In this document: in pieces, positions 12,001 to 15,000 of the stretch
How the letters are laid out: each line of letters opens with the position of its first letter
How positions within the stretch are numbered: the first letter of the stretch is position 1
Position numbers: made by a program
From: Escherichia coli
GTDB taxonomy: Bacteria; Pseudomonadota; Gammaproteobacteria; Enterobacterales; Enterobacteriaceae
NCBI RefSeq assembly: GCF_017348835.2
Contig: NZ_CP071375.1
Reading direction: 5' to 3' (one strand)
DNA length: 64,000 nt

Positions 12001-15000
12001 TCAGGAACGGATTACCGGTACCCGTCATCGCCACACCATCAGGAACGGGAGCATCCGTATACAGATAAATCCCCAGCCCGAACTGATTGTTGGTCAGTGC
12101 GCCTGACAGGCGGAACTTACAGGTCAGTCTGCCGCCCTGTGTCAGCAGGGTAATTGCGTCATCCACCGGATGCGTCAGGGACCAGGTTTTATTGCTCTGC
12201 TTGGTGATCTTAAATACACCATCTGACAACTGAATTCCGCCATCCTTAATGCTCCAGCCCTGCGCAGCAGCCTCTCCGGCTGCCGGCAGCAGGGAGATTG
12301 TGCGAACGGACGTATCTGCAGACGGACCCGATGGCGTGTTGCCGCCGGGCGAGGGTTTGATTTCCGGTGCCTTACCACTGATGAAGGCTGAGGTGCGCCC
12401 GGCTGCGTTCAGAATAGCGGTTGCCAGACGATCCGGAATAATGCTCCTGCGCGCCCATGAACTGAAATGTGTCGGGCGGTTTGATGATACCTGGTTTCCA
12501 TTCGTTCTCGATGCCGCACCGTAATATCCTGATGCCGGAATATCCGGATCTTCTGCCGGCGCGTTAGTGGCGGTATTGACGCCGTTACCGTCTGTCATGA
12601 AGGGCACAAAATAAACGCCCTCACTCTCCCTGTTTTTATACCCGCCGTACACGGTGTCGTATTGGGTAGCGTATGTATTTTTCCAGTAATACGTCGTGTC
12701 ACCACAAATCCACGGCACATCTGCAGCGCTGCCACCATGGCACTGCGCGTTAAACACGGAGAGGTCAGCACGAAACTGTGTCAGCATGGCTGTAAACAGC
12801 GCAGGTTGCTGTGCGTGGGTGGCGGCGCTCATGTCAAACTCACCCTGCATCCAGCAGACGGCCAGCAGAACGTTTTTGGGATTTTTCTGCAATGCCGCTT
12901 TTGTGCGGGAAATCAGATCCTGATATAACGGCTTGCCCACCCCCCAGCGTGCCGAATCCTGACTGGCCCCCGTGGACTCGCTGAATGTCCCCTCCGCGCC
13001 CTGGGTAAATGCCGAACCACCACGACAGCATGGTACCAGCAGGATCCCCGCGTTATTCGGGATATACGGGAGCAGTTTTTTGGCAATATGTAAACCCTGG
13101 CCGACACAGCCGTACTGCCCTTTGCTCAGGTCAGCCCTCGGATGATTCAGCGTACTCATATCCTGCACATCATGCAGACAGTGGTCAGCCGGAATAATAT
13201 CGTTATATCTGCAGGCAGCCCCGCCCGGCGTCACTGTACTGCGGCGCGCCAGCTGTTTAATGCGCGGATCCGGAGCATCGTATGAATCCGGCAGCGGAAG
13301 CCCTTCACCGTAAGCCATGGCATTGGACTGCCCGGCCAGTACGATGACGTAGTACCAATCCGGCTCAGATGAAGGGCCGACCTGTGGCTCTCCTTCAATA
13401 GCCACCGCCTGCATCAGTGTGTACGGCGTAATGGCAACCGGTCCGCCATATGGCTGCCAGCCCTCTTTCAGTTTGTGTGTCAGCTTTTCCGCAAGGTCTG
13501 ACGGCGACGCCGCCCTGACAACATCATAATGTTTAATCGACATCGAATTTCTCCCGTGTAGAGGAACAGAGTTAAAAAGCCGGAAGCGGAATCAAATCAC
13601 AGGATGACCATCTGCCAGTGGCTGGTCGTAAAAAAAAGGCCGCGCCATGCGCAGCCGAAAATAAAGGGATAACGATGATAGTTTGAGAAAAACAGAAATA
13701 ACACTTTTGTGGCAAAGCATGGTGCCGGGTGCCTCCCGGTGAATTCAGTATCAGCACCTGAATCCGCGATTACCCCATATTCCTTCTTGCTGATTGCCCC
13801 ACCGCACAGGGGGATTCACCATGCAGAAGTGTTTTTAATAAACAGCAAACAAAAAAATCAAGCATTATGCAGGCTGTTTCTTTTTATCACCGGCCACAGC
13901 AATACCATAATGCCGCAGACCAGCACCCCATCCGCCAGCACCGACATGATTCTGCTGGTGAAATCCACCATCACCACCAGAAACAGCAGGAGTGCAGCCA
14001 CAGTCAGGCGCAGTTTTACCGTCACAGGTAATTCTCCAGACGAAGACCCAGAACACCGGCAATCTCTTCCAGCACCTTGCGCTCTTCCGGCTCAATTTCG
14101 CCGTCTGCCTCCGCAATGGCCACCGCCACATCCAGCACATCTTCCGCTTCACGCGTATCGTGTTTCACATCCTCGATCTCACGTAACGCCGCACGACGAC
14201 CAGTTTTAAAGTTCGTATCCAGCTGACCGATAATGGTTGCGCTAATCGCATTAATTTCTGACGTAAACGCGTACAGCGCAGGCTGATTACGCAGTACCTG
14301 TTCGATCTTCGCTTTCTAGGAAGCCTCACATTCACCATCTGCACAGGCCACCAGGTATGCGGCGTTAATCACCACCTGTGCCAGATCGCGTTTTTCAAAC
14401 TTTTTAATTTCCGTTGCCGCTCTGCGGGCTTTTTTTACCAAAAATACCAAACATCGTGACGTTCCTTTGGGTGGGTGAGCCAACGCCCGGGAGCGATCTG
14501 CCCACAGAGAAAGTCACACTGACCACTCCATAAGCTCCCCCCGAAAGGCTCTGTGGTTGGTATGCGCCGGGCGTGGTGCGGATACAAAAAAGGTCCGCAA
14601 AAGCGAGCGAGGGAAAATAAGTGTGGTGCGTTGTACTGGGTTCGAACCAGTGACCGATTGCTTAGAAGGCAATTGCTCTGTCCGGCTGAGCTAAAAACGC
14701 AGAATACCGATAATGGACCGCCATCGGAGACTCGAACCCCGCGAAACCAGCTTCGAAGGCTGGCGTTCTATCCCGATGAGCTAATGGCGGTATGTGATGG
14801 TGGCCCTTGCTGGATTTGAACCAGCGGCCTGGCGATTATGAGTCGCTCGCTCTCACCACTGAGCTAAAGGGCCGGGCGCAGGATAATAACGTTACGAAAT
14901 CAATGTTGCAAGCATTCAAGAATCACCTGGTTAAAAATTACCCTTGCTTCCTCCACCAGCGCATTCACCATGTCTATCCGAGATAAGTGGCACAAAAAAA

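Follow-up and report, generated by a model that had tools for sequence, protein, structure and literature searches.

The stretch analysed here (64,000 nt of the Escherichia coli contig NZ_CP071375.1, assembly GCF_017348835.2; hereafter the window) contains a prophage of the lambdoid type integrated at serU, and the late-operon cargo slot of this prophage very probably holds, in decayed form, a known phage moron of two genes, composed of a TerB-family gene (phrog_632) and a DUF3927/TciB gene (phrog_1470). In such a moron, a cytoplasmic TerB-family protein would be followed by a small membrane protein with two helices, the start of which overlaps the TerB stop codon. The TerB member, a TciA-like pseudogene on the minus strand (14022..14454; the strand was read directly from the sequence), is supported by sequence reading, Pfam, phrog_632 and the Prokaryotic Genome Annotation Pipeline (PGAP). 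The uninterrupted reading frame of functional family members is absent from it: the frame contains a TAG codon, and the ATG is put out of frame by a run of seven adenines (A7). The PGAP annotation was read from the record of E. coli PE164, a pig isolate whose chromosome is 100% identical to the window over a 22-kb stretch (9000..31000). In that record, 14022..14450 (minus strand) is a "tellurite resistance TerB family protein" marked as pseudo with an "internal stop". The pseudogene, its family and its partner are ordinary and already publicly annotated in PE164 and in hundreds of other genomes.

The ancestral ATG is located at 14454..14452, 8 nt downstream of an AAGGA Shine-Dalgarno sequence. 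The frame that it opens reads MFGIFGKKSPQSGNGN and then stops. The TerB frame, offset by +1, runs through KKARRAATEIKKFEKRDLAQVVINAAYLVACADGECEAS to the in-frame TAG (14318..14316), resumes as KAKIEQ and ends in LENYL at the terminal TGA (14024..14022). The two frames meet at the A7 run (14436..14430, T7 on the plus strand). A preliminary description of this DNA had reported both the out-of-frame ATG and the in-frame TAG, and both are confirmed by direct reading, the pseudogene status also by PGAP in PE164; its boundary of 14012 for the gene falls 10 nt beyond the end of the TerB frame and had to be moved, and its other coordinates are exact, apart from that of the downstream overlap treated below. 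For family assignment, we used a repaired translation, in which one A was removed and TAG was read as Glu. It matches the Pfam TerB family (PF05099) over residues 34–138 with 39.1 bits (E 1e-9, gathering cut-off 24.4), and phrog_632 ("tellurite resistance") end to end (residues 1–143 of 143, E 2e-68), and it is 96–99% identical to annotated E. coli proteins of 142 or 143 aa. The family profile further matches the solved structure of Klebsiella TerB (PDB 2JXU; E 7.4e-14, query 13–137, chain 19–144), and this sequence-profile match settles the TerB fold. Judged from these profile comparisons, the homology to the TerB family, already proposed in the preliminary description, is far beyond chance. 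Of the two acidic DGxxxxxE motifs typical of the family, the second (D117-G118..E124) is intact; the first retains D39-G40, its Glu46 codon is the TAG, and the motif is complete in intact relatives. Searches for other affiliations were negative: among the defence models of PADLOC-DB 2.0, TerB gave only a sub-threshold match (PDC-S48, E 0.006, 13.7 bits) and DUF3927 none, which rules out a catalogued anti-phage defence system, and NCBIfam gave only sub-threshold similarities to DjlA and YmfL that reflect the TerB-like domain of DjlA and are uninformative. A literature search on TerB together with nanS-p found nothing.

Of the two lesions, the nonsense codon is the better established as inactivating. 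It replaces GAG, the codon for the nearly invariant Glu46 of the first acidic motif, and Glu occupies this position in all intact relatives compared. A G-to-T change turned GAG into TAG. The TerB gene is therefore dead: of the 143 residues of this single-domain protein, no more than 45 can be made, and a full-length product is impossible here. Within the TerB gene, the allele of O157:H7 strain 3-5-1 differs from the window only by a synonymous change (GCA/GCT) and by GAG/TAG, and it shares the A7 run. The exact 82-nt context of the TAG was the best match in 337 of the 649 matching complete-genome records; its carriers include O157:H7, O145, O121 and O2:H16 strains as well as pig and giant panda isolates, and in one O157:H7 genome it is present in two different prophages. 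This distribution points to TAG as a real, old and widely shared allele. Besides PE164, PGAP reports the same pseudogene with an "internal stop" in AMSHJX01, OkiPb01687, PV15-279 (two prophages) and O121 FWSEC0006, and nothing contradicts the pseudogene call. At exactly the TAG position, one E. coli TerB protein on the A7 background has Trp (presumably TGG), a codon one step away from TAG and two from GAG that may be a pseudo-reversion.

The A7 run represents a +1 insertion relative to alleles with A6 or AAAAAGAAAA. Alleles with one base fewer, which carry either GGTAAAAAAGCC or the commoner TTCAAAAAGAAAACC, use the ATG as their start and encode proteins of 143 aa that are annotated as intact. 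Klebsiella, Salmonella, Serratia, Pantoea, Erwinia jumbo phages and P7 all retain Glu46 and an N-terminus of the form MFG(I/L)F..KK, at identities as low as 49–52%. Relatives this distant still begin in this way at the ATG, and the A7 run is therefore a derived +1 insertion and the upstream ATG the real start of the family; the extra A in the lysine-codon run (A6 to A7) parts the ancestral ATG from the TerB frame. The exact A7 context was found in 553 of 679 matching complete-genome records, A6 in the same allele in four and A8 in none; given these counts, A7 is neither a read error nor a hypervariable tract. In all, about 1,860 copies are present in about 650 genomes. For A7 copies free of the TAG, PGAP places the start at a TTG (14450..14448), which yields a protein of 142 aa beginning MVFLVKK (e.g., WP_001303558.1 in O157:H7 3-5-1). 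This TTG, the only in-frame start, is spaced 12 nt from the Shine-Dalgarno sequence and follows the well-placed ATG by 4 nt. Since the competing ATG stands at 8 nt, we think that expression from the TTG would be poor. In RefSeq, the "intact" 142-aa TerB proteins of O157-type strains probably result from an annotation that rescues a frameshifted gene.

The alleles differ in the constraint that they show and have probably been mixed. The ratio of nonsynonymous to synonymous substitution rates (dN/dS) is 0.01–0.06 among ATG-intact alleles and 0.05–0.26 in comparisons with the window-type allele, and Fisher tests gave p = 0.0002, 0.03 or 0.22 depending on the pair; relaxed constraint in the A7 lineage is suggestive only. 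All four combinations of A6 or A7 with GAG or TAG were found and the O121 allele is visibly mosaic, which together point to recombination between prophages. Both lesions would be old, with A7 already crippling expression across the O157-type allele lineage, and would have spread among the lambdoid prophages of enterohaemorrhagic E. coli (EHEC) type by such exchange. As fixed, widely shared alleles, TAG and A7 could be used as markers of prophage lineages. A loss of TerB favoured by selection seems improbable. It would account for A7 and TAG alleles that are widespread in EHEC-type prophages with the overlapping DUF3927/TciB gene intact, and it is compatible with the data in that both lesions occur on several backgrounds and, within single genomes, in several prophages. 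Possible reasons would be interference of the phage TerB with the chromosomal ter island of these strains or, by analogy with phage 434, that TciB alone is the useful part; in a possible variant, a very low level of TerB would be maintained through slippage on the A7 tract. The same distribution is explained equally well if each lesion arose once, long ago, and was then spread by recombination.

The reading of the locus as a moron decayed through two lesions has to be set against several points that weigh on the other side. In hundreds of genomes, A7 alleles that lack the TAG have an otherwise open frame of 142 codons, for which PGAP takes the TTG start, and some full-length product could be regained through low-level +1 slippage on the A run or through slippage in transcription. 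The relaxed-constraint signal amounts to about 10 substitutions, is not significant in every comparison, and includes several replacements common to A6 alleles. The function of the intact cassette, finally, is inferred wholly from family names, and tciABC of P1 are known only as non-essential (PMC10695390). Of the double inactivation asserted in the preliminary description, the TAG lesion stands, and A7 as an inactivating lesion by itself is unproven and a weaker claim. The competing view, that TAG is the only inactivating lesion and that the A7 allele functions from the TTG at 14450 (142 aa, MVFLVKKARR at its N-terminus), so that the gene took one hit and not two, deserves appreciable but minority weight. 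It draws on the annotation of WP_001303558.1 (142 aa) as intact in O157:H7 3-5-1 with the same A7, on A7/GAG copies lacking further disruptions, and on the position of the six altered N-terminal residues outside the Pfam TerB match (34–138). Opposed to it are the MFG..F..KK N-terminus, kept across genera to 49% identity, the larger number of amino-acid replacements in the window-type lineage than in intact alleles, and the start context, in which a strong ATG at the ideal spacing of 8 nt opens a dead-end frame of 16 codons and the TTG comes 4 nt after it, at 12 nt from the Shine-Dalgarno sequence.

A regulatory role of the A7 run, as a site of programmed +1 frameshifting, a transcriptional slippage site or a phase-variable switch setting a low or switchable TerB level, is very unlikely. 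A lysine-codon run does allow tRNA-Lys to re-pair perfectly once shifted by +1, a stop closes the zero frame 9 codons after the A run, and the A7 allele is very common. The shift site, however, has neither a stimulatory stop nor a rare codon, the protein is read in a single frame without a long run (AAAAAGAAAA) in all other allele families and genera, and the length polymorphism of contingency loci is absent; the counts of 553, 4 and 0 records for A7, A6 and A8 rule out a phase-variable homopolymer. In E. coli, transcriptional slippage is known to be efficient on runs of about 9 or more, and A7 is shorter. For this window, the TAG makes the question of A7 regulation moot. The artefact named in the preliminary description, a homopolymer miscount at the A run, or alternatively a base error at the TAG, in a gene that is really intact, has a negligible chance of being correct. 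Homopolymers are error-prone in some technologies and the four A6 records occur in an otherwise identical allele; the A7 records, in turn, come from many laboratories and platforms with no A8 among them, the TAG is present in more than half of its matching records, including two prophages of one genome, the 22-kb identity is to an independent record, and the four A6 records are, if anything, themselves the likelier errors or reversions. A read or assembly error is thus effectively refuted by the allele counts in complete genomes. The decayed two-gene moron adds only modestly to what is public, and the locus matters little, as gene, family, partner and pseudogene status were already on record: the A7 frameshift is real, fixed and annotated away by the TTG start in RefSeq, and both lesions are population-level alleles and not errors, so resequencing is unneeded.

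The second member of the moron is an intact open reading frame (ORF) of 55 aa on the minus strand (13858..14025; WP_000216649.1 in PGAP). Its GTG start overlaps the TerB TGA in the tetranucleotide GTGA (14025..14022), and its own GGAG lies 8 nt upstream. A small hydrophobic ORF with a GTGA overlap had been noticed in the preliminary description and was found as described, at a position about 11–14 nt away from the one given there (about 14011). The ORF matches DUF3927 (PF13064, E 1.7e-16) and the "TciB-like" phrog_1470 (E 1.8e-29), and its hydropathy profile shows two hydrophobic segments parted by DFTSR. It is 60% identical to TciB of phage 434 and 50% identical to Upf69.4 of P7. The pair of TerB and DUF3927 with the stop/start overlap is kept in P7, a Pantoea prophage, a Klebsiella 186-like prophage and a metagenomic P1-like contig; in the Pantoea prophage it sits between a Q-like antiterminator and the holin. 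In the Klebsiella prophage, the DUF3927-like ORF is uncalled (50 aa, 3432..3584 of that locus, with a GTG start overlapping the TerB stop), and gene calls therefore understate how general the pairing is. Rare proteins of 170 and 197 aa fuse the TerB and DUF3927 domains, so the GTGA stop has been lost in some copies.

When intact, the cassette would have been a moron of the late operon, transcribed by read-through from pR' with Q as antiterminator, and its soluble TerB-domain protein would have acted together with a very small partner in the inner membrane. On the analogy of ter operons, the cassette would probably have given accessory protection against colicins, phage or membrane stress at the inner membrane. 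The DUF3927 protein may still be made from its own GGAG, although the TAG 290 nt upstream would abolish translational coupling. Given that the gene is intact and has its own GGAG, and that TciB of phage 434 occurs without TerB, this half of the cassette may still be functional.

A textbook location for morons, stx included, is the slot that separates Q from the lysis genes. Here the late region has the order Q, pR'/tR'-like site, three tRNAs, cargo, STnc100-like small RNA (sRNA), nanS-p and lysis genes, all on the minus strand. The layout of Shiga toxin (Stx) phages attributed to it in the preliminary description (Q, three tRNAs, nanS-p-like esterase, S, R and Rz) is present in the PGAP annotation of PE164, together with an IS3-family element that had gone unmentioned. 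The late antiterminator Q (15084..15779; PGAP coding sequence 15084..15773; Pfam Phage_antiter_Q, E 9.8e-93) forms the upstream end of the cargo slot. A consensus match to a pR'-like promoter (15100..15072) downstream of Q is followed by a palindromic GC hairpin with a T-run resembling tR' (about 15030..14997), which the scan scored on the plus strand and which was read on the minus strand from the sequence. By analogy with lambdoid late-region organisation, this site is presumed to be the start of the late transcript into the cassette. An isrK-like Rfam match in the same place (15067..14995; 22.7 bits) is weak and below threshold. The three tRNA genes, which form a trio of the ileZ-argN-argO type (14873..14624), were each identified by ARAGORN, Rfam and PGAP: a tRNA with anticodon CAT (14873..14798), tRNA-Arg(TCG) (14790..14714) and tRNA-Arg(TCT) (14700..14624). 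The CAT tRNA is a tRNA-Met according to ARAGORN and a tRNA-Ile according to PGAP; we take it to be the ileZ-type tRNA of Stx-phage late regions, in which CAT would decode Ile after lysidine modification.

A spacer of 170 nt separates the last tRNA from the TerB ATG. The complete gap between the tRNAs and the esterase, estimated earlier at roughly 1.1 kb, measures 1080 nt (14623..13544) and contains TerB, DUF3927 and an STnc100-like element in place of stxAB. The scaffold of Stx prophages (Q, tRNAs of the ileZ-argN-argO type, cargo, nanS-p, S, R and Rz) is found here, and stxA and stxB are absent from between the Q/tRNA region and nanS-p. In tblastn searches of the whole window with the A and B subunits of Stx1 and Stx2, all matches had E > 0.3, which rules out a hidden or remnant stx. 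The right-hand border of the slot is formed by the sRNA element of the STnc100/PasD family (13681..13853, minus strand; Rfam RF02076, 100.8 bits against a gathering score of 47). The STnc100-like segment is conserved in >2600 E. coli records, and it is this segment, not the TerB gene, that makes part of the gap conserved in those records and in Stx phages. According to a recent preprint (bioRxiv 10.64898/2026.05.13.724894, 2026), STnc100 is related to the PasD prophage sRNAs, and TerB is a conserved neighbour of the PasA/PasC sRNAs.

Directly before the esterase gene lies a hairpin resembling an intrinsic terminator (13638..13656, minus strand), with an 8-bp stem containing 7 GC pairs followed by TTTTTTTT, a T8 run. 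An antisense "hypothetical protein" pseudogene called by PGAP on the plus strand (13520..13663) has an internal stop, lacks both termini and extends over the terminator and the beginning of the esterase gene; it is unsupported and was rejected as an annotation artefact. The esterase is an intact carbohydrate esterase of the nanS-p type (11693..13543, minus strand; 616 aa; WP_000023256.1 in PGAP) with the Pfam domains DUF1737, SASA and DUF6645. Between it and the holin, the PE164 record has an IS3-family transposase (10331..11544, plus strand) encoded by orfAB with a programmed frameshift, which is IS1203/IS629-like; the late operon is probably interrupted by this insertion, and IS1203 occupies the equivalent place in O157:H7 relatives. 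Two further ORFs in the window (44141..45028 on the plus strand and 56295..57182 on the minus strand) are both 295 aa long, as is the ORF of this insertion sequence, and all three gave spurious tblastn matches alike in length, identity and internal offset (228 nt), which suggests three copies of the element within 64 kb. The lysis genes annotated in the same record are a class II holin (9932..9726), a lysozyme (9039..8506) and an Rz-like protein (8170..7703), each on the minus strand.

The prophage as a whole is visibly decaying. PGAP reports frameshifts in the integrase (28851..29901), in the portal gene (2027..3617) and in the major capsid gene, the annotated coding sequence of which overlaps 1..90 and runs past the window start, as well as an internal stop in ydfD (25834..26025). 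The immunity region is Qin-like, with dicA/dicC/dicB/ydfABC, and hokD is also present. Beyond serU and mtfA and adjoining a tRNA-Asn, a second integrase (31235..32497) heads a separate mobile island (31010..40848) that contains IS66, another gene with an integrase domain, a PemK/MazF-AbrB toxin-antitoxin pair and an LA2681-family HEPN protein; its cargo may include defence genes.

With respect to known systems, the pseudogene shares with the terZABCDEF operons the TerB domain of Klebsiella TerB (PDB 2JXU) and the two acidic DGxxxxxE motifs, but its partner is the 55-aa DUF3927 protein and not TerC, and none of terC, terD, terE and terZ is annotated in the 40 kb of the PE164 record. A closer resemblance is to the operon tciA(terB)-tciB(upf69.4)-tciC(upf69.6) of P1 and P7, where a TerB protein of about 143 aa is likewise followed by an overlapping DUF3927 gene (49.6% identity to P7 for TerB and 50% for Upf69.4), both members are full-length matches to phrog_632 and phrog_1470, and phage tRNA genes adjoin. 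Unlike that operon, which belongs to a plasmid-prophage, the pair here lies in the late region of a lambdoid prophage, and its TerB member is a pseudogene. A third, tciC-like gene was ruled out, as a tblastn search of the whole window with P7 Upf69.6 (35 aa, beginning MGFWDFADK) found no homologue (best E 1.1). In a CRISPR interference screen, tciA, tciB and tciC of P1 were non-essential (PMC10695390), and the tci name itself is derived from homology (PMC10695390; PMC9603915). The late cargo of phage 434 (a membrane protein, TciB, a small membrane protein and a SASA esterase) also has DUF3927/TciB upstream of the esterase, with 60% identity, but a 247-aa membrane protein replaces TerB ahead of TciB; DUF3927 can therefore occur without TerB.

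Stx-converting phages (Stx2 phages of the 933W/Sp5 type and Stx1 phage 75/02) use the same slot with the same flanks, namely the tRNA trio upstream and the STnc100-like element and nanS-p downstream, and their first 49–87 nt after the last tRNA are conserved with the window. Their similarity to the 1080-nt gap is confined to its two edges, and their cargo is stxAB in place of TerB and DUF3927. Stx2a_WGPS4 has the same tRNA trio with stx2A 92 nt after the third tRNA, and its late antiterminator has a coding sequence of 489 nt (about 160 aa), in contrast to the 230-aa type of Q here; in 75/02, stx1AB is followed by the STnc100-like element, esterase, holin and lysozyme. The flanks shared with Stx2a_WGPS4 and 75/02 bear out the earlier proposal that TerB occupies the position in which Stx phages carry stxAB. 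Among the related prophages, to which an alignment had been suggested, the slot holds stx in Stx phages and an intact TerB-family gene in other relatives. Relatives with the TerB cassette are further lambdoid prophages and phages of EHEC and enteropathogenic E. coli (CP-933/Sp of O157:H7, phage Evi, and PPyecE_EH1910 with its "TciA/TerB-like protein"), which have the same order of Q, tRNAs, TerB, DUF3927, STnc100 and esterase at 86–100% DNA identity. The same "internal stop" allele is already annotated among them, with no difference of substance from the window, and their intact versions have GAG at codon 46 and/or one A fewer.

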